Assembly: GCF_000237865.1 (NCBI RefSeq) | Contig: NC_017459.1 | Coordinates: 120,001 to 152,000, forward strand | Length of the DNA stretch: 32,000 nucleotides | DNA from: Haloquadratum walsbyi C23 | Lineage (GTDB): Archaea; Halobacteriota; Halobacteria; Halobacteriales; Haloferacaceae | Direction: 5' to 3' | Part shown: piece by piece, positions 1 to 26,843 of the stretch | Position numbering within the stretch: the stretch's first letter is position 1 | Layout of the letters: the number at the start of each line of letters is the position of its first letter | Program-made: the position numbers and the translations under genes | The notes under the pieces: model-generated | Databases searched by the model: none | The model's input: the letters and a program-made list of their open reading frames with translations, nothing else | What the model was told of the DNA's origin: nothing

Positions 1-3000
1 CGACATGAATTGCGTCGGGGCGCGACCTTGCATCTCTAAGGCTTGAGTGTCGTCACCAACGGTCCCGAAGCCGGTTGCTCCACCCGACGAGCCGCTTCCG
101 GTCGCAGCCGTCTGGTTGGTCGCGCCTTTGTCCCAGTAGGCGCCCGAAAGTTGCCCAGTATTGTTCCCGACGAGTCCGCCAACGGTGCTCCCGCCCTTGA
201 CGCGTCCGCTGGCGTACGACCGAGTTACATCTACATCCTCGGTCTCGCCGACGAGACCACCAACTTTGTCGCCCGATGTGGTGACATCACCGCGCGCGTA
301 CGAATCGGTAATAGACCCGTCATTATTCGTATCGCCGATGAGTCCACCAACGTAGTCGCCATCAGTGGAGACGTTGCCTCGTGCATACGATGTTTCGACA
401 CCATCGCCATCCTTGTAGTACCCAATCAGCCCACCGACCCGCTGTCCAGTTGCGTCAACGTCACCGGTGGCCGAGGCGTTTGTCAGGATGTGATCAGCTG
501 AATCGTGGTGAAGTTCGCCAAACAGTCCACCGACTAGGTTCCCGCCTCCGGGGTCACTGGCGTTGACATCACCGGTAGCAGAGACATCTGTCACGTTTCC
601 TGCGTTCTGGAACTCTCCGACGAGCCCGCCGGTATACGCATCTGTCCCCGTGTTCGTCGCGTTAACGACGCCCGAAGCATGAGCGTTAGAGACGGTGATC
701 GGGTTCCCGGAACTTGACTTCGCCTGACCGACCAATCCGCCCACGTACCCACCGGAGGTGCCGTTCACGCTCCCGCCTGCAGAGGCGTTGATCACGTCAG
801 CCTGCCCCCGGCCGAGGAGACCACCAATGTAGCTCGTCCCGGTGACAGCCCCGGAGGCGTTCACGTCGGTCACCGGCGTCGTACTCTGGTGATCACCGAT
901 GAGACCACCAGCGTACTGATCAGTCGCGGTGACGGTCCCGCTCGCACTGGCGTTGTTCACCGCGCCGTTACTCTCTCCGACCAGTCCACCGATGGACTGA
1001 CTGCCGTTTGCGGTCGCCGTTGTGGTCGCGTCAGTAACGACACCGCCACTATTGACGGTTCCAACGAGACCACCAATCCGATCGCTTCCGCGGACGGCTC
1101 CCGAGGCGGTGACGTTCTGGACCGTGTCGTTGTTGGCTCCGACGGCCACGCCGAGGTCGTTGACCCCGTCTATCGAGGCGTCCTCGACCGTTAGGTTCTG
1201 GATTGTGCCGTCGTTAGTTCCGGCTACCACGCCAAGTTCGTCGCTCCCGGTGACCGAGGCGTTCTGGATTGTCAGATTCTGGATCGCCCCGTTCGAGTCG
1301 AGCGCGCCGACGAGCCCAGCCGTGCTCGCTCCGCTTCGGTTGATCGACAGGTTCGAAATCGTGGTGTCGTTACCGTCAAGTGAGCCGGTGAATGGCGCAA
1401 TCGGCTCGAAGCCGCTGCCACCGTTCCACGAGGCGTTGCCCGTCGCCGACGTGTCGATATCTTCGGCGAGTCGGTAATTATCAGCACGCGCAGCACTGCT
1501 GTTGTCGATTGCTTGCAGATCTGCAAGCGAGTCGATCAGGTACGGATTGTCAGCGGTGCCGTTTCCGCTATACACCGCGGTCAATTCTTCGCCATCTTCG
1601 CGGACGTAAGTTCGTACCGCCCCATCGCTCACGGTGACCGTCGCGTTCGCCGTCGCGGTCGAATAGCCGACCACAGTAAATGTCGGGCTAAACGTCCCGG
1701 TATCCGATTCAGTGATCGAGAGTGTTGCGGTCCCCGTCTCGTTCGTCACGGCCGTAGCGTTCTCAAGGCTGGTGAGACCTCCGGTATCCTGAACGCCCAC
1801 GATGAGCCCCTCAGCCGTGCTGGTGCCAGCTGTCGTCACTGTGACCGAAACCGAGACCTGCTCGGACTGAATCGCGCTCGCGTTGGTAGCGGTGACCGTA
1901 TTGACTGTGCGAGGTGGCTGTTCGGTTCCAGTCGACTGCGCCTGCAAGACCGGATAGCCCCGTGTGACGTTCCACGTAGTCGTGTAGTGTAGCCCATCCA
2001 TGAGCTCAGTCGCCGCCCGACCCTGCATCTGCGGTGCCGGCGTGGTGTCACCGACAGATCCGTAGCCAGTTGCCCCGTCCGGCGTGCCGCTTCCTGTCGC
2101 ATCCGACTGGGCAGTCGCGCCTTTGTCCCAGTAAGACTCGGAGATCTGCCCTGAGTTATCACCGATGAGCCCGCCAAGACCACTGTTCCCCTCAACTCGG
2201 CCGCTCGCGTACACGCGTGCCGTGTCGCCGTTTGTCTGCCCGATGAGTCCGCCGACGGGTCCCGTCCCAGAGACATTACCCTGTGCGTATGAGTCCTGCA
2301 CTGTACCGAGCGTCCCTTCAGTGCCCCCAATCAGCCCACCGGTTGGCCCAGCCGCATCCGCGTTGACATCACCTGTCGCGGAGGCGTTTGCCACAATGTT
2401 TGCCCCCGATTCGTGGTCAATTACCCCGATGAGTCCGCCAACATGCTCACCATTAAAACCAGTACTAGCGGATACATTGACTTGACCACTGGCGGAGACG
2501 TTCGTCACGTTCTTTGCGTTTCGAATTTCGCCAATAAGTCCGCCGACGTACCCGCGACCGCTGCCGACTGCCGCGGTGACATCACCGCTTGCGTCCGCAT
2601 CAGAGATACTAACGGGACTGGTCTGTATGGCACCAACCAGTCCACCGGCGCCCTGGTTTCTGGTCGACACGTTACCTGATGCCGAGACGTTTGCAATTGT
2701 CGCTACCTGGCTTGGGTCGTGCTTGCCGATCAGTCCACCGACGTTACTACCAGTACTATTCACGTCCCCAGTTGCTGACGAACGTCGGATGATGCTGGCG
2801 TCCGCCGATCCGAGTAATCCACCAACACTCTGGCCAGTCGCAGAGACGTTGCCTCGTGCATTCGAGTCCTCGACTGTACCGCCACCACTGTATGTCCCGA
2901 TTAATCCGCCGACTTGACCGTTCGTGTCAGTAGCAACATCGCCCGTCGCAGAGGCATTTGCAACGATGCGTGATGCCGATTCGTGCTCAAAGCTACCGAT

Positions 3001-6000
3001 GAGTCCGCCAACACGTCCATTGACGCCTTGTTTTCCGGCGATAGAGGCATTCACCTGACCAGTGGCGGAGACGTTTGTCACGTTCTTTGCGTTTTGAATC
3101 TCACCGATGAGTCCACCGGTGAAAGCATTGTTACCGCTGAGATCCGATGTCGTAACATTACCATCAGCACGCGCGTTCAAGATAGTGACAGGAGAGCCGG
3201 AAATCGAACTGCCAACCAGTCCACCAACGCGCACGCCCTTACTGGTCGAAACATCACCCGACGCCGAGACGTTTGCAATTGTCGCTACCTGAGTTGGGTC
3301 GTGCTCACCGATGAGTCCACCGACGTTAGATCCGGTAGTACCGTTCACGCGCCCGCTCGCCGAGGAATCGGTCACGTTAGCCTGTGCTCGACCAATCAGC
3401 CCACCGGTGCTCTCTGTCCCGGTGACGGCCCCGGAGGCACTCACGTCGGTTACCGGAGTCGAACTCTGGTGATCGCCAATGAGCCCACCAGCGTACTGCC
3501 CGGTTGCAGTGACAGTTCCGCTCGCACTGGCATTGTTCACCGCCCCGCTACTCTGTCCGACTAACCCGCCAATGGACTTGCTCCCGCTTGTAGTCGCGGC
3601 TGCAGTTGAGTCGGTTAAGACGCCACCAGAGTTGACCGTCCCAACGAGGCCCCCGATCCGGTCATTTCCGATAACCGTCCCTGAGGCAGTGACGTCCTGG
3701 ACGGTACCAGTGTTGATTCCGACTGTCACACCGACGTCGTTGTTCCCGGTGACAGAGGCGTTCTCGATGGTCAGGTTCTGGATCGTTCCGTCGCTGGTCC
3801 CGGCTATCACACCGAGGTCGTCGCTCCCGGTGACAGAGGCGTTCTGGATTGTCAGATTCTGGATTACCCCGCTGGAATCGAGCGTGCCGACGAGCCCAGC
3901 CGTACTCGTGTCGCTCCGATTGACAGATAGATTCGAGATTGTGTGCCCGTCTCCGTCGAGCGTACCATCGAATGTTCCGCTCTCACCCGCAATCGGTTCG
4001 AAGCCGTTGCCACTGTTCCAGGAGGCGTTGTTCGTCGCCGACGTGTCGATATCCTCGGCGAGTCGGTACTGTTCACCACGCGTGGTCGCGTTGATGTTGA
4101 TCGCTTGGAGATCCGCGAGCGAGTCGAGGAGGTACGGGCTCGTGTCCGTCCCGTTACCGGGATACGTCGCCGTTAGCTCGGTGTCGTCATCACGAGTGTA
4201 CGTCCGCACTGTGCCCGGCTCCACCTCGACCGTCGCGGTCGTCGAGACGGTCGATTCTCCCGCTGCACCGAACGTCGGCTCGAACGTCCCGATTGCTGAT
4301 TCGGCGAAGGTGAACGTTGCAGTGCCGTTCGCGTCGGTCACGGCCCCGGCGTCCGCGAGTTCGGTGAGGCCGTCCGCGTTGTCGACACGGATCACATAGC
4401 CTGCATCAGCAGGGGTACCGTCGACCGTCGCGGTGACGTCGATCGTCGTCTGCTCGGTCTGCAGTGCTGTCGTGTCGGAGGCCTCCATCGAGTCGATGGG
4501 CGAAAGCGAGGGCCCGGTCGTGTTCGACTCCCGTTGGAAGACCGGATACGTACTCGTGAGCTTCCACGGCGACGTGTAGTTCAACGGCTTCATGAACGTC
4601 GTCGGCGCTCGGCCCTGCATCTCCAAGGCGCGGGTGTCGCCGACTGTCCCGAAGCCAGTGGCTCCAGCCGACGAGCCGCTTCCGGTTGCACCCGTCTGGT
4701 TGGTCGCGCCCTTGTCCCAGTAGGCGTCCGAGAGTGCTCCGTTGTTGTTCCCGACGAGTCCGCCGACAGTGCTCCCGCCCTCGACGCGTCCGCTGGCGTA
4801 CACGCGCTTCACATCTCCGCTCGCTTCACCGACGAGGCCACCAACGTAGTCTCCCGAGCTATTGACATCACCGCGCGCGTACGAATCGGTGATAGAACCG
4901 CCATTCGTATCGCCGATGAGTCCACCAACGTAGTCACCATCAGTGGAGACGTCGCCTCGTGCATACGAGGTTTCGACTCTATCGCCATTCTGGTGGTAGC
5001 CGATTAGCCCGCCGACTCGCTGTCCCGTCGCGTCAACGTTACCGGTGGCCGAAGCATTCGTCAGGATGTAGTTTGCCGAATCATGGTGAAGTTCGCCGGC
5101 TAGTCCGCCGACTCGGCGACCGTTTCCGGAGGCACTGGAGATATTAACATTGCCGGTGGCAGAGACATTTGTCACGTCGGTCGCGTGTCGAAGCCTGCCA
5201 AAGAGTCCCCCGGCGTACGCGTACGTACCAGTGTTTGTTGTGACGACATCACCTGTGGCGTGTACATCAGAGACAGTAATCTGGTTAACAGACTCCGAAG
5301 TACCGACCAGTCCACCGACTTTCTGACCACTGGTCGATACGTTACCCGACGCTGAGACGTTCGTGATCGTCGCCGCTTGATTATGGCGGTGATCGCCGAT
5401 CAGTCCGCCAACCCGGTCGCCAGACGTACTATTCACCTCGCCGCTGGCGGTCGACTCTCGGATGTTGCTGGCGTCCGTCTGTCCGAGTAACCCGCCGATA
5501 TGATCTCCCCCACCCGACACGGTGCCGGTCGCGGTGGCATTTCTCACCACCTCACCGTTCTGGTGATACCCGATGAGCCCACCGACTCGCTGTCCTGTCG
5601 CGTCAACGTCACCAGTGGCCGAAGCGTTCGTCAGGATGTAGTTTGCCGAATCATGGTGAAGTTCGCCAAACAGTCCGCCGACTCGGCGACCGTAGGAATT
5701 ATCTTGAGCGGAAACGTCACCGGTGGCGGAGACGTTTGTCACGTCGACGGCGTGTCGAAGTCGACCGAAGAGTCCCCCGGCGTACGAGTTTGTACCAGTC
5801 TCCGTTGCATTGATCTCACCCGTAGCGTGGGCATCAGAGACGGTGATCTGGTTGCCGGACTCCGAAGCACCGACCAGTCCACCGACTTTCTGACCCCCGG
5901 CCGACACGTTACCTGACGCTGAGACGCTCTCGATTGTCGCTGCCTGATTAGGGCGGTGTTCGCCGATCAGTCCGCCAACGTACCCGCCGGATGTGCTCGT

Positions 6001-9000
6001 CACGGTCCCACTAGCTGAGGAGTTGCTCACGCTCGCACTTACACGTCCGAACAGTCCGCCTGTGTAGTCGCCGTCACTGGCGACGTCACCAATCGCAGAG
6101 ACGTTTTCAATTGTCTCACCGTTCGTATGATCGCCAATCAGTCCACCCGCGTAACCAGCGCCACCCGACACATCGCCAGTCGCGGTGGCGTCTCTCACCA
6201 CCTCACCGTTCTGGTGGTAGCCGATGAGCCCGCCGACTCGCCGTCCCGTCGCGTCAACATCACCGGTGGCCGAGGCGTTCGTCAGGATGTAATTAGCTGA
6301 ATCGTGGTGGAGTTGGCCAAACAGTCCGCCGACTTGGCGACCATAGGAGTTGTCTTGAGCCGAAACGTCACCGGTGGCGGAGACGTTTGTCACGTCGACA
6401 GCGTGTCGAAGTCGACCGAAGAGTCCCCCGACGTACGAGTTCGTGCCGGTCTCTGTCGCGTTGACGTCACCCGTAGCGTGGGCGTTAGAGATGGTAATCC
6501 GGTCGGTAGTCTCTGAGGTGCCGACCAGCCCACCGACCTTCTGGCCACTGGTTGATACGTTGCCTGACGCCGAGACGCTCTTGATTGTCGCCGCCTGATT
6601 GGGGCGGTGATCGCCGATCAGTCCACCAACCTTGTTGCCAGACGTGCTATTCACGTCACCGCTGGCGGACGACTCTCGGATGACGCTAGCGTCCGTCTCT
6701 CCGAGTAATCCGCCGACCCTCTTTCCCACAGTTGATACGTCGCCCGTTGCAGTAACGTTATTGATCGTCCTCCCTTTGTCGTGATACCCGATCAGCCCGC
6801 CGACGCGCTGTCCAGTTGTGTCAACATCGCCGCTTGCTGACGCGTTTGCAACGATATAATTAGCTTGATCGTGGTGGAGTTCGCCAAACAGTCCGCCAAC
6901 TCGGCGACCGTTTCCGGGCGTACTGGAAGCGTTGACATCACCGGTAGCAGAGACGTCTGTCACGTCGGTCGCGTGTCGAAGCTCGCCAAAGAGCCCCCCG
7001 GCGTACGCGTACGTGCCAGTGTTTGTTGTGACGACATCACCTGTGGCGTGTACATCAGAGACAGTAATCTGGTTGCCAGACTCCGAGCTGCCGACCAATC
7101 CACCGACCCGGTTGCCGCTGCCCGACACGTTACCCGATGCCGAGACGTTCCTGATCGTCGCCGCCTGATTGGGATTGTGATTGCCGATCAATCCACCAAC
7201 CCGGTCGCCGGACGTGCTCGTCACGTCGCCGCTGGCGGAGGCGTTGATGACGCCGGTCCGCGCCCGCCCGACGAGGCCGCCAGTGTAGCTGGTTCCGGTG
7301 ACAGCCCCCGAGGCGTTCACGTCGGTCACCGGCGTCGAACTCTGGTGATCACCGATGAGCCCACCGGCGTACTGCCCGCTCGCGGTGACAGTCACGCTCG
7401 CGCTGACGTTGTTCACAGTCCCTCCAGACGTGACAGTCCCAACGACGCCACCGATTTCCCGGCGGCCCTCGACCGTCCCTGATACGGTGACGTTCTGGAC
7501 AGTCCCAGCGCTTTCTCCGACCACCGCACCGATGTGTCTGTCACCGACGACCGAGACGTTCGTGAGAGCGAGGTTCCGAACCACACCACCCGATTCCAGT
7601 GTCCCGACGAACCCGAGCTCGTTTTTTGTAGTCGCACTCTGATCGATCGACAGGTTCGATATCGTGTGGCCGCCGCCGTCGAGCGAGCCACTAAATGCGG
7701 CACCGCTGTCGATGCCAAACAGCCCACCGATCGGCGCGAACCCTTTCCCGTGTTCGCTGGGCACGTTCCACGACCGCGTGGCCGAGGCGTCGAGGTCGGA
7801 GCCCAGCTGATAGTTGTATCCGCGCGTGGTGGCGTTTTTGTTGATCGCCTGTAGATCGACGAGCGAGTCGATGATGTACGGGTCCACCGTCGACCCGTTG
7901 CCGGCAAACGTGCCGGTCTGGATGGTACCGTTGACCTCGTGATCCCACGACGCCTGACTCCCGGCAATCGTCGTTGCGCTGGCGTTGTTCCCCAGCGAGT
8001 CTGTCATCGACACGATTACCTCCCGAGACAGCGCCGGGTTCGCCCCAACAGTCACATTCCCGGTGAAGTTCCCGTTGCCGGTGTCTGTCAGCGTGACGGA
8101 ATCACTGTCGGCATCCAGTGCGGAGACGTCGGCCGTGGCAGTGGTGATTGAGCCGGCCTCGGACACGGTCGCGTTGATATCGAACGTATCTCCCTCCGAC
8201 AGCGGCGCGGTGCCACCGGTCCGTGTGATCGTCACCGAATCGATACTTGGGGGTGAAGTGTCCACTGCGAGCGTGTTCGACCGGGTGCCGGTCACCTGCG
8301 TGCTGGCGTTCCAGGCGAGATAGCCGACAGTCGTAGGTGCGTGCCCATCTTTATCAATCGCTGCATCCTCTTCAACCCGAACGTCGACACTGTCTTTCGT
8401 GCGATCATCATAACGGAGATAGGCTGGTTGACCTCCACTGCTATCTTGCAGATCAGCAATAAATCCGGCAGGATGCGGGTCGTCGAAAGTGATTTTCTTA
8501 AGCTGGTTATTGACCCCGCTGATCTCGTCAGCAGTGAAGTTCGTCTCACCCAGCACTGAGTCGCCCTGTTCAATAGCGATGTACCCTATCGTCTCGGTCC
8601 CGTGTGCCGTCCCGTCGTTTCCGCTCGCTTCGTCTTCTTGAATAAACACGTCCAGCCCGTTCGAGTCGATGTTTTGATTTCGCGTGCTCACCGCGTCGGG
8701 ATCGTTGAATGTCTGCGGTTGCGTAAATCCGATTGGCGTGCCGGATAATGACTGGTTAAACGCGACTGAATTGATCGTGCCTTCGCTCAGAGTTGTCGTC
8801 CCAGCGTCAACTTTTGTCCCGTCGTCGAGTTCTGTCGTGCCGGCCTCGGCTACGATGTATGAGACGTTCGCGGTCGGGTGGCCGTTGTCTTGGTTCGACC
8901 ACTCCTCGACGCGAATCTCGAAGGAATCCGACTGGACGTTCCGAATACGGGTGTGGCCGCGCTTCTCCGTGGCCACGTCTTCGCTATCTTTTTTAGATGA

Positions 9001-22834: not shown

Positions 22835-23142
22835 TATCAGCGGACTAATATCTACTTCCTTTTGATGACGCGATTCTCAACCTCCTTGTAAAAAAGCTAT
22901 TTCAGTACACTATCATAGCTGATACAGGCGCAATACCACGGTCTTGCGGAGGAGAATGTCAATTGGGAGTATATACCCCGATGAATATTATGCAACAATG
23001 ACTGATCTGATATCGAGTATCAACACCACTCACTGACTATCATAATCAAGATACTCTTTGTGAGTGTCTGCATGTGATGTAATCGTCACAATTAAGATTA
23101 TTGCATTGATAATTTCTATGTAGTATATTATACTCATTTCTC

Positions 23143-23213
23143 GCGCCGGTGGTCCAATGGTAGGACTCGGGCTTCCCAAGCCCGCGGTCCGGGTTCGATT
23201 CCCGGTCGGCGCA
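23143..23213 (+). tRNA. tRNA-Gly (anticodon CCC), 71 nt, no encoded CCA.
   Basis: The cloverleaf was folded by eye. The acceptor stem is GCGCCGG/TCGGCGC and the D stem is GTCC/GGAC. The anticodon stem CGGGC/GCCCG carries the loop TTCCCAA. The T stem CCGGG/CCCGG carries the loop TTCGATT, and the discriminator is A. A T-run (CTTTT) follows and an AT-rich TATA-like region precedes. Confidence 0.92.
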
Positions 23214-23270
23214 CTTTTGAGTCCTCTCTGACGACGATGGATTACCGAAGCACGGGAAGATGTCGAAATA

Positions 23271-23448
23271 GGGTGCATGCAGTAAGAAGTACCTCCAGAT
23301 CCTCCAGATCCCCTACCGGCACAGGAGTACCAGTTGGTCGGCACAGCCAGTAGTCGTCATCGAGGCGTCTCCAAACTCTATTCATTCCAACTCAGCGGTA
23401 CAGTACCGTTGGAATATTTATGATTATCAGGGCAGAAATGATGTCAAC
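23271..23448 (+). mobile_element. Second decayed tnpB-tail/right-end module, homologous to 20625-20788.
   Basis: It shares the blocks GCAGTAAGAAGTACCTCC, GGCACAGCCAG, GTCATCGAG, CAGCGG, GGAAT, CAGGGC and GATGTCAA in the same order. The corresponding frame reads RSTSWSAQPVVVIEASPNS, versus RSNGWLAQPGAVIETATNL in the other copy. It contains an internal 9-bp duplication (CTCCAGATC x2). Confidence 0.5.
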
Positions 23449-25214: not shown

Positions 25215-26843
25215 TCAAGCTAAAAACACATGTCGTGGGCGCTCAGAAAGAACGTCACGCCCCCATTCGACAGTTTCACTGAATTCATCAGACCGGAAAA
25301 ATGACATTGCATCCTCACGTGCATCCCATTGACTTGAAATAAACATATCATTCTCATCTTCGAGATTTATCATCAAATCTGTCTGTTGGTGACCGTCCAT
25401 CTCGGTGAGGATCCCCCCAACAGTATCAAACGTGTCATTGAATTCACCGCGATATTCTGATTTCACCGTATAGAACATTCCCATTGTTCCAAAGCCTGAT
25501 TCTTCACCTGCTCGTGAGACAACATCCGGTAACTCTGAAATAAATCCAGCTGCCGTCTCTGCGGCTGATTGTGTCTCCCAAATGCTGACAACAGCATTCC
25601 GATGGCGATTGCGAGCTTCGTATACCGCTGTCTTTACATGTGTCTCATAATGATCGAAGTTCCCTCTGAGTCCCTCAACCTCTGAAAATAGCTCATCGGT
25701 AGTGGCTTCTGAATACAGAACTGTTGCATAGACATCTTCACCATGTGGTTGTCCTGCATAGATGTCATACTCTGCTAACTGTTCGCGAATTTCGCTATCT
25801 TGAGTGTTTGTGTTTGTGTTTGTGTTTGTGCTTGTGTCTGATTGTGTTGTATCCGCACTCGTGGTCGACCTGGAGTCGCTATGATCTGCATCTTCTGTCC
25901 CATGTGCTGATCCGCCGGCACTGGCACCTCCAGGTGACTGTCCATGGGAGCTGCCCCCACCCCCTCCGCTTCCGTGTGGGGAATCCCCATGGGCGTGTCC
26001 GTGTGCTTCACCATGTGCTGTTGGCGCGTCAACATCCTGTTCGACTGTCGGAATTGCCTTTCCTTCGAGAAGTGCACCGAGGTCAGCTGGCGGGAAGCGT
26101 TGTCCAATATAGAATGTCCCGAATTCGCCATATTTTGCAGACACCTCATCGAACCGCATCTCATAGACAATATCTTTGATATCTGTTGGATCATCGGCGA
26201 ATAGCGTTACCCCCCACTCATAATCATCAAAGCCAACTGAGGATGCAATGACTTGCTTGATCTTCCCTGCGTATTCCTTTCCAGTTTCAGCGTGAGCCTC
26301 CATCATTTCAGCTCGCTCATCAATCGGGAGATCATACCAATTATACGTCTCACCTCGACGCTTTGACATCGGGTAGAACCCAGCATAGTCCTTATCAGGT
26401 ATCTCAGGTGTCAACTTTCCTTGCATATACTGCCGTAATCCCTCGTCTGCGGCATCTGGATTCTCAAAATATCCGGGTGTCGTATATCCTGATATCTCTG
26501 CGACAGAAACATACGATGTTGGCTGCGTTGTAAATCCGGCAAATGTCGTTTGCTCAAATTGTCGTTCAGCACGTGAGAGTGCATCAAGCGTCGGTCGAAA
26601 GTGTGTGATGAGGATGTCAGCTTTATGTCCAAGCACAGAGAATACCGCTGAGGAGCCCTCTTCAGCGTCAGCAATCGATTCATGTTTTCGAAGATACTCC
26701 ACACCATCACCGATTGCAGCCTCTCGACGGTGTGTTGGTGCTTCACGCCATGCATCCCAGTCAACAGTGCGAAAATCATGCAGGACAAACCAGCCCTCGT
26801 CAGTCGGCGGAACCTCTGACATATCTGTATATTCAATCGCCAT
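25215..26843 (-). CDS. Chlorite-dismutase-family domain fused to an antibiotic-biosynthesis-monooxygenase (ABM) domain (PitA-like), joined by a His/Gly/Ser/Thr-rich linker.
   Basis: The N-terminal half (GWFVLHDFRTVDW..., SVLGHKADILITHF, YPMSKRR) looks Cld/HemQ-like. The C-terminal ~100 aa (MGMFYTVKSEYRGEFNDTF...FISSQWDAREDAMSFFRSDEF) looks ABM-like. This fusion is known from Haloferax volcanii PitA (from memory). Confidence 0.85.
   Translation of the reverse strand: MAIEYTDMSEVPPTDEGWFVLHDFRTVDWDAWREAPTHRREAAIGDGVEYLRKHESIADAEEGSSAVFSVLGHKADILITHFRPTLDALSRAERQFEQTTFAGFTTQPTSYVSVAEISGYTTPGYFENPDAADEGLRQYMQGKLTPEIPDKDYAGFYPMSKRRGETYNWYDLPIDERAEMMEAHAETGKEYAGKIKQVIASSVGFDDYEWGVTLFADDPTDIKDIVYEMRFDEVSAKYGEFGTFYIGQRFPPADLGALLEGKAIPTVEQDVDAPTAHGEAHGHAHGDSPHGSGGGGGSSHGQSPGGASAGGSAHGTEDADHSDSRSTTSADTTQSDTSTNTNTNTNTQDSEIREQLAEYDIYAGQPHGEDVYATVLYSEATTDELFSEVEGLRGNFDHYETHVKTAVYEARNRHRNAVVSIWETQSAAETAAGFISELPDVVSRAGEESGFGTMGMFYTVKSEYRGEFNDTFDTVGGILTEMDGHQQTDLMINLEDENDMFISSQWDAREDAMSFFRSDEFSETVEWGRDVLSERPRHVFLA
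25804..25839 (-). repeat. Hexanucleotide microsatellite (GTGTTT)4 plus two degenerate units, encoding (Thr-Asn)n in the PitA-like linker.
   Basis: Reading directly gives GTGTTT x4, GTGCTT, GTGTCT. The protein reads TSTNTNTNTNTQ. Confidence 0.9.

Follow-up and report, generated by a model that had tools for sequence, protein, structure and literature searches.

Halomucin, the giant secreted product of hmuI in the square archaeon Haloquadratum walsbyi, has been known since 2006 and was at one time the largest archaeal protein on record. It is described in two strains, as HQ_1081A in HBSQ001 (9159 amino acids, aa) and as Hqrw_1107 in the type strain C23, where it was published as a single protein of 7836-7837 aa (PMC3119063, PMC4378361). 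Its gene, hmu1 in the publication of Bolhuis et al. (2006), was presented there as a large gene of high G+C content (GC), with capC and capB in the same region (PMC1544339, Fig. 1), and it has been characterized as a 'high GC gene with highly biased codon usage' (57.7% GC; PMC1544339, PMC3119063), its G+C being about 57.7-57.9% in a genome of about 47.9% (PMC3119063 Table 3). A Sec signal has been reported for the protein (PMC1544339, PMC3119063), and its published description includes a Ser/Gly-rich region and a conserved C-terminal region of 559 codons. Transcript was detected along the whole gene (PMC1544339), expression being low in culture, at 3.3 transcripts per million (PMC5496347), and immunofluorescence showed the exported protein in extracellular clouds that adhere only loosely to the cells (PMC4378361). 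Two shorter paralogues, Hmu2 (2885 aa) and Hmu3 (2079 aa), have also been described (PMC1544339), and some natural Haloquadratum genomes have no hmu gene or only degraded copies (PMC4330952). The window analysed here, a stretch of 32,000 nucleotides (nt) corresponding to positions 120,001 to 152,000 of contig NC_017459.1, contains at its left end a very long open frame on the minus strand, which we take, with a probability of about 0.9, to be the 5' 44% of hmuI, most probably codons 1-3426 of the 7836 codons of C23 Hqrw_1107. This gene is already known, and the present work adds annotation detail rather than a discovery.

The frame is a real gene. Translated from the ATG at 10278 down to base 1, it comprises 3426 codons with no stop at all, just as a previous reading based on the letters alone (hereafter the sequence-only reading) had claimed, while about 117 stops would be expected by chance from the base composition (0.034 per codon; the logarithm to base 10 of the probability of finding none is -51.7). 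The remaining five frames of 1-10278 contain 52, 84, 106, 158 and 173 stops. The ATG is the earliest possible start, as an in-frame TAG is found five codons upstream and no ATG, GTG or TTG lies between. On the other side the frame remains open up to the window edge, so that the gene has at least 3426 codons with its stop located outside the window; an exact 60-mer taken from the left end of the window had no match in the genome contigs or metagenome contigs searched. In the 3426-residue product there are 57 copies of the strict motif GGL[IVFL]G and 59 of the relaxed form GG[LIVF][LIVFA]G, in agreement with the 55-60 or so previously counted by hand; shuffled residues yield 0.7 on average and never more than 5. 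The Pfam model of this GLUG repeat, Glug (PF07581), matches the product with E=3e-95 (306.7 bits for a cutoff of 20.5). The N-terminus, MSQTAKPIFAVVVALSVLISGVAFIESVSA, with putative cleavage before QQ, resembles a signal peptide, as had been proposed: its n-, h- and c-regions are visible by inspection, and it is the only strongly hydrophobic stretch in the 3426 residues.

A giant minus-strand frame, a Sec signal and a high GC within a low-GC genome are features that the frame shares with HmuI of C23 and of HBSQ001. The frame has 59.8% GC (0.598), with a GC at third codon positions (GC3) of 0.666, against a background of 47%, the rest of the window (22 kb) having 40-51% GC; the ten neighbouring genes have a GC3 of 0.35-0.42 in a region of 44-50% GC, and the excess displayed by hmuI is largely found at synonymous sites. 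The bias can also be followed codon by codon, AAC making up 76% of the asparagine codons in hmuI versus 23% in its neighbours, and GTC 51% of the valine codons versus 24%. Such a codon usage is typical of high-GC haloarchaea, yet it is found inside a low-GC genome, foreign origin and selection both being candidate causes.

More specific landmarks come from published primers and antibodies. When the reverse-transcription PCR (RT-PCR) primers designed for hmu1 of HBSQ001 (Bolhuis et al. 2006, PMC1544339) are mapped onto the window, pcr3-for matches exactly at 3044-3065 on the minus strand and pcr3-rev exactly at 2090-2110 on the plus strand; the two are convergent and delimit 976 bp, in keeping with the '1 kbp' PCRs of that article. 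The primer pcr1-for has two mismatches, at the signal-peptide cleavage site, and several other published HBSQ001 hmu1 primers have no site in the window. The peptide used by Zenke et al. (2015) to raise antibodies corresponds to HQ_1081A residues 1458-1474, and C23 was reported to differ from it at 8 of 17 positions (PMC4378361); the counterpart in the window, NTLAVDTSPPSIDSVTI (residues 668-684, nt 8227-8277), indeed differs from the HBSQ001 epitope NELSVDTSAPQIDDLSA at 8 of 17. The epitope is thus displaced by 790 residues between HBSQ001 and the window, and this offset fits the 793-codon deletion (283-1075) through which C23 lost its C-type lectin-like domains (CTLDs). Consistently, the Pfam search found no Lectin_C match in the 3426 residues. 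Compared with hmuI of HBSQ001, the gene therefore differs by the absence of these codons and by the two primer mismatches; compared with the published description of C23 HmuI, with its capC and capB neighbours, its GLUG repeats, its primer and epitope map and its missing CTLD pair, we found no difference. Finally, Dyall-Smith et al. (2011) located the divergent part of C23 hmuI at 108448-129921, flanked by 119 common N-terminal codons (PMC3119063 Table 3, Table S5). Adding the corresponding 357 nt to 129921 gives 130278, which is 120000 + 10278, and this places the ATG at C23 position 130278, on the minus strand; the window would then be 120001-152000 of the C23 chromosome. Hmu2 and Hmu3 are ruled out, the 3426 codons in view being already more than either possesses and both being absent from C23. 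The idea of a secreted GLUG giant from a low-GC haloarchaeon, halomucin or a paralogue, is thus supported, and the locus can now be named as hmuI rather than a paralogue.

The GLUG motifs are grouped in three blocks (31, 17 and 11 motifs), with a spacing of 26-37 residues inside the blocks, and each block forms a super-module closed by recognizable caps, PY[IL][IL]DSL...TLDG.GHTISNL on the N-terminal side and YWDKGAT...EMQGRA...YP on the C-terminal side. A YWD context had been attributed to the motifs themselves; this proved incorrect, as YWD is present only three times, once per super-module, in the C-terminal cap. The three super-modules are 47-58% identical to one another. The first contains an internal unit of about 190-217 residues in four copies, the DNA repeats being spaced by 567, 651 and 570 nt with 79-86% identity, and the third is cut by the window edge inside its C-terminal cap, where the sequence YWDKGATNQ... 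starts at residue 3381. An AlphaFold2 model of residues 2030-2790, built from a 55-sequence alignment, is a regular all-beta solenoid, with a mean predicted local distance difference test (pLDDT) of 88.9 and a predicted template modelling score (pTM) of 0.84. Compared with the Protein Data Bank (PDB) using Foldseek, this model of super-module 2 finds 3n6z (BACOVA_03286) as its best match (E 7.8e-5), then the IgA1 proteases 7uvl, 7uvk, 6xja and 7jgj; probabilities are 0.98-1.0 to 3n6z, 7uvl, 7uvk and 7jgj, and 0.82-1.0 over the IgA1 proteases as a whole. The beta-helices of adhesins, PL6 lyases and phage tailspikes rank next, with low probabilities. A search of the PDB by sequence, with the whole protein, gave nothing significant. 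On the strength of this model the GLUG arrays are predicted to adopt a beta-helix (solenoid) fold. The explicit domain map, together with this confident model of one super-module, is what the window brings as new detail.

Several points weigh against the identification with C23 hmuI, and it is fair to set them together. The evidence for the assignment is indirect, consisting of primer sites, a single epitope, the gene neighbourhood, base composition and a coincidence of coordinates. Searches for protein homologues with residues 1-400 and 1830-2230 gave no halomucin entry, every hit in the homologue searches being shorter than 950 aa and those to these two queries shorter than 700 aa, and the best long representative in the protein library is 36% identical. 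The stop codon and 56% of the gene are outside the window, intactness being established for the 5' part. One could therefore ask whether the frame belongs to a paralogue, be it Hmu2, Hmu3 or another GLUG giant, or to the hmu gene of another Haloquadratum lineage. The N-terminal 292 residues recur, with 74-78% identity, in shorter DUF642 proteins, both in H. walsbyi and in metagenomes, and because they are shared in this way the N-terminus alone does not identify the gene; moreover, those metagenome contigs on which the neighbouring genes are found reach no more than 98.9-99.2% identity to the window. We nevertheless regard this as improbable, since the frame is longer than Hmu2 and Hmu3, and since the neighbours, the exact pcr3 pair, the epitope, the 790-residue offset and the start coordinate all point to hmuI of C23; were the DNA to come from a close relative of this strain, the identity of the gene would be unchanged. 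It could also be imagined that the gene is decaying, with an intact 5' part and a break further downstream, as in the environmental eHmu2 and eHmu3 and in Haloquadratum sp. J07HQX50. Degraded hmu genes are documented (PMC4330952), the metagenome-assembled genome (MAG) J07HQW1 retains a 59-residue relic of the first Ig-like domain downstream of its capB orthologue, and more than half of the gene is beyond view. A pseudogene is very improbable all the same: no stop is met in 10.3 kb, the modules are conserved, one of them being modelled with high confidence, and C23 HmuI was published as a single protein.

Two further explanations concern the nature of the product. The list of open reading frames (ORFs) supplied with the window shows only short ORFs across 1-10278, the plus strand bearing 14 of the 16, and the absence of the large gene from this list had rightly been noticed. 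It is the consequence of a rule of the track, which does not list ORFs running off the end of the source, and not a biological oddity. The prediction that an automated pipeline would either miss the gene or call shadow ORFs must be divided: the list does display shadow ORFs, but callers that accept partial genes do find hmuI, as witnessed by two metagenome contigs (L015 and L016) on which a 48-residue partial gene was called at exactly the hmuI start. When ORFs truncated at an edge are dropped from a list, the largest gene of a window can go unseen even though its shadow ORFs are displayed. There is next to no chance that the true genes are these plus-strand ORFs, with the long minus frame arising as a by-product of composition. 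They are, to be sure, the entries actually listed, and the plus frame opposite hmuI has only 52 stops; yet the six longest have no Pfam match, and they are rich in R, P and S, a composition that antisense or shifted readings of a gene rich in G, T, S, A and V would be expected to have. Strong family matches, homologues and a confidently modelled fold speak for the minus frame, and a sense transcript of hmu1 was detected by RT-PCR (PMC1544339). With no families and an antisense-like composition, they were rejected as genes. The other explanation is that the protein is an enzyme, either an IgA1 protease of the M26 type or a beta-helix polysaccharide lyase or depolymerase, and not a structural coat protein. 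IgA1 proteases give the best fold matches, with PL6 lyases and phage tailspike depolymerases after them, and there is a weak match to Peptidase_M26_N (E 2e-4). With 21.1 bits, this match does not reach its cutoff of 27.7 and is confined to the GLUG-like part; neither HExxH nor the M26 catalytic domain (Peptidase_M26_C) is present, the lyase and tailspike matches have probabilities of 0.03-0.3 with a TM-score of at most 0.3, and Pfam and NCBIfam searches detected no catalytic family in the 3426 residues. The absence of the catalytic domain led us to reject the IgA1 protease reading, and an enzyme of either sort is to be held most improbable.

The M26 IgA1 proteases of streptococci and Gemella, as well as BACOVA_03286, share with halomucin the PF07581 motif and are the best structural matches of the modelled super-module, but they differ in that halomucin lacks a metalloprotease domain (a motif search of the 3426 residues found none of HExxH, LPxTG and PGF), and in that it carries at least three very long helices, of 11-31 rungs, where the IgA1 proteases and BACOVA_03286 have a single short one. 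Further relatives are the large bacterial and archaeal proteins labelled 'GLUG-domain', 'large exoprotein' or 'filamentous haemagglutinin-like', which combine an N-cap, GLUG rungs and Ig-like spacers, and with which halomucin has a cap in common (...S.WD...GQ..S.GGTG..T.EM...). In a representative library, 11340 relatives are found at E<=1e-10, most of the large GLUG exoproteins having 1000-6000 aa. Among the best 150, none with the order DUF642, Ig, triple H-lectin, GLUG exceeds 36% identity over a long protein, and, compared with the filamentous haemagglutinin-like exoproteins, halomucin has no two-partner secretion (TPS) domain.

With the animal gel-forming mucins, the resemblance is one of composition and proposed role. 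Like them, halomucin is very large, secreted, rich in Ser, Thr and Gly, presumably heavily glycosylated, and credited with a protective and hydrating role. No homology was detected, however, Pfam giving only Glug and the weak M26_N match. Mucins are built from Pro/Thr/Ser (PTS) tandem repeats and cysteine-rich VWD, C8 and CK domains; the product of the frame has no Cys at all and 2.1% Pro, and it is acidic (D+E 10.6%, K+R 4.3%). Even the potential glycosylation differs, being N-linked (N-x-S/T) on folded beta-helices in halomucin and O-linked on disordered PTS repeats in mucins; there are 120 N-x-S/T sequons in the product, against 52 +/- 6 in shuffled sequences. Homology to mucins was accordingly rejected, for want of shared domains and of Cys. 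'Mucin' is a matter of composition and presumed role, not of ancestry, and judged by homology the protein is a GLUG beta-helix exoprotein. Domain matches and model together support the view of halomucin as a lectin-headed filament of GLUG beta-helices rather than a mucin homologue.

The features of the locus are collected in Table 1.

Table 1. Halomucin gene, predicted domains of its product and upstream genes (positions counted in the window)
Feature	Position	Strand	Basis
hmuI 5' part, codons 1-3426	1..10278	-	0 stops; GC/GC3; Glug E=3e-95; primers and epitope
Sec-type signal peptide, residues 1-31, putative cleavage after SVSA	10186..10278	-	K-containing n-region, 18-residue hydrophobic core
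DUF642 / CBM_4_9-like beta-sandwich, residues 34-187	9718..10179	-	PF04862 E 5.5e-16, 59.2 bits (cutoff 27); PF02018 E 3.7e-6
Two Ig-like domains, residues 195-290 and 291-395	9094..9696	-	first: Big_13 E 1.7e-7, Big_7 E 9.5e-5; second: weak matches
Three H-type-lectin-like units, ~265 residues (400-665)	8284..9081	-	internal repeat; own H_lectin match E 0.056, 14 bits, sub-threshold
Third Ig-like domain, residues 670-785; epitope counterpart at 668-684 (nt 8227-8277)	7924..8271	-	32% identical to second Ig-like domain
GLUG super-module 1, residues 790-1897, 31 motifs	4588..7911	-	motif counts; N-cap PYIIDSL..., C-cap ...YWDKG...
Ig-like spacer, residues 1915-2025	4204..4536	-	weak Big_1 E 0.02; 45% identical to next spacer, E 3e-27
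GLUG super-module 2, residues 2035-2787, 17 motifs	1918..4176	-	AlphaFold2 model; carries pcr3-for and pcr3-rev sites
Ig-like spacer, residues 2795-2890	1609..1896	-	45% identical to spacer 4204-4536
GLUG super-module 3, residues 2895-3426, 11 motifs	1..1596	-	58% identical to module 2 over 552 columns
Upstream intergenic region	10279..11052	-	GAGG ~7-10 nt before ATG
120-codon ORF, ATGA 4-nt stop/start overlap with hmu ATG (probably non-coding)	10275-10637	-	Pfam/NCBIfam: no match; GC1/2/3 0.43/0.47/0.46
PgsB/CapB-like amide ligase, 388 aa	11053..12219	-	TIGR04012 poly_gGlu_PgsB E 1e-25, 90 bits vs cutoff 223
CapC/PgsC-like membrane protein, 410 aa	12222..13454	-	PF14102 Caps_synth_CapC E 6e-30; TIGR04011 E 3.7e-5

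The three families that the sequence-only reading had singled out besides GLUG, namely DUF642, Ig-like and H_lectin, fared unequally in the N-terminal head, while GLUG itself was found with the high score already given. DUF642 is matched above cutoff, and TIGR04362 (choice_anch_C) in the same region reaches E 8.1e-29 with 100.9 bits, under its cutoff of 120. For the Ig-like domains the suggestion holds for the first, matched by Big_13, the others being weak, although the second is 32% identical to the third with E 3e-14. For H_lectin the match of the sequence itself stays under the threshold, but the assignment is supported through homologues: in an alignment of the module comprising 16 members, 15 of them homologues, 14 of 16 match PF09458, the best with E 3.3e-11. 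Dozens of the best 150 library matches align best to residues 400-665, with 30-39% identity, and the module resembles the triple-repeat H-type lectin modules (PF09458) of other large secreted proteins at 30-56% identity, with the difference that the copy in the window is too divergent to reach the Pfam cutoff; sugar binding is putative. A profile search of the PDB with this module gave nothing significant, and a single-sequence AlphaFold model of residues 395-790 had a pLDDT of 37, which makes it unusable.

Residues 1-292 (9403-10278, minus strand), that is, signal peptide, DUF642 and first Ig-like domain, form a cassette common to three shorter proteins of 471-648 aa (P0002-P0004), with 74-78% identity, the similarity ending thereafter; one of them, P0003, is an H. 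walsbyi 'DUF642 domain-containing protein'. This sharing suggests domain shuffling among surface proteins.

How such an assembly might work can be proposed as follows, keeping in mind that the protective function is a hypothesis of the literature, that natural Haloquadratum genomes without hmu exist (PMC4330952) and that N-glycosylation, rod lengths and glycan binding are deduced from the sequence, all of which counts against taking the scheme as settled. After export through the Sec pathway, the beta-helix modules would fold into rigid rods, each of roughly 10 nm at least, and the Ig-like domains would act as hinges joining the rods. The outcome would be a segmented, acidic and heavily N-glycosylated filament, well over 100 nm long, the N-terminal domains, related to carbohydrate-binding modules (CBM) and to lectins, possibly binding glycans of the S-layer, of other halomucin molecules or of a capsule polymer. 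Together, the filaments would make a loose extracellular mesh shielding the cell, with proposed roles as a hydrated or ionic buffer and as a barrier against halophages.

The way halomucin is held near the cell may depend on its other end, which is seen here on environmental contigs and not in the gene of the window, the 3' end of hmu being about 13 kb to the left of base 1. Two metagenome contigs, L024 (3-1706, plus strand) and L025 (reverse strand), were identified by back-translating the published C-terminal epitope into a degenerate DNA pattern, and on them the frame stops exactly 386 residues past the start of the epitope, as in HQ_1081A. Over 567 residues, the tail consists in order of an S/G-rich linker, a weakly hydrophobic stretch, about 100 residues with a net charge of about +36, another weakly hydrophobic stretch, within which the antibody epitope lies, and three helix-hairpin-helix (HhH) units (HHH_5 E 1.2e-14; DUF4332 E 1.7e-9). 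An anchor of the PGF-CTERM type had been suggested; no PGF-CTERM was found at the 3' ends of L024 and L025, which finish in ...EMHLNNNS, nor any PGF in the part of the protein encoded in the window, and the environmental copies of hmu end instead in the HhH module, the C-terminus of the present gene being outside the window. A similar tail (41-47% identity, the polybasic part being near-invariant) is found at the end of open frames truncated by the contig start in high-GC haloarchaeal metagenome contigs (L026 and L027). Three loci, L024, L026 and L027, have readable DNA downstream, and in each of them an Ion_trans channel gene follows. In the library of papers searched, none pairs 'halomucin' with 'helix-hairpin-helix'. 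To judge from its sequence, it is conceivable that the tail serves as a membrane anchor, with the polybasic loop in the cytoplasm, and equally conceivable that it binds an extracellular polyanion, either poly-gamma-glutamate, the putative product of the adjacent capBC-like genes, or environmental DNA. That halomucin would be a tethered beta-helix filament and not a freely secreted 'mucin' is doubtful for the time being, and the polybasic HhH module is the one lead worth following.

Immediately upstream of hmuI, the CapB-like and CapC-like genes are on the same strand. The pair is divergent, the CapC domain covering only the first 125 or so of the 410 residues. Although the ORF at 10275-10637 appears among the called genes of metagenome contigs, with 118 aa, it has no family match and its GC is flat over the codon positions, unlike that of the real genes nearby; it probably belongs to a non-coding leader or promoter. 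A scan for sigma-70 promoters and terminators upstream of hmuI used a bacterial model, uninformative for an archaeon. The closest genomic relatives of the CapB-like protein, with 90% and 81% identity, belong to Haloquadratum MAGs, and each of the two MAGs (L001-L004) has two paralogous capB/capC-like pairs (90/74% and 81/74% identity to the CapB-like protein of the window). No GLUG giant was found downstream in the syntenic loci of the capB-like gene in 14 haloarchaeal genomes.

The relic in J07HQW1 (KE356560.1, L001 11797-11973) is 71% identical to its counterpart in halomucin and follows the capB orthologue (90% amino acid identity), the signal peptide, DUF642 and the GLUG modules being absent. 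It looks like a loss of hmu in situ, although a run of N about 1.6 kb further on makes a partial loss in assembly possible. The two contigs with the partial gene, L015 and L016, come from independent metagenome assemblies, are about 98.9% identical to the window in the neighbouring genes, and both end at window position 10135, 144 nt into hmu (codon 48), well before the repeats; this shared end probably reflects sequence variation, at the population level, at the 5' end of hmu.

Elsewhere in the window, a tRNA-Gly(CCC) at 23143-23214 on the plus strand is the sole RNA gene found by ARAGORN and Rfam. The 104-codon minus-strand ORF at 23030-23344 is probably spurious, because it overlaps this tRNA and has no family match. 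The gene at 25215-26843 on the minus strand, unrelated to halomucin, encodes a 542-aa protein in which a chlorite-dismutase-like domain (E 9.7e-63) is fused to an ABM monooxygenase domain (E 6.4e-10) at the C-terminus.

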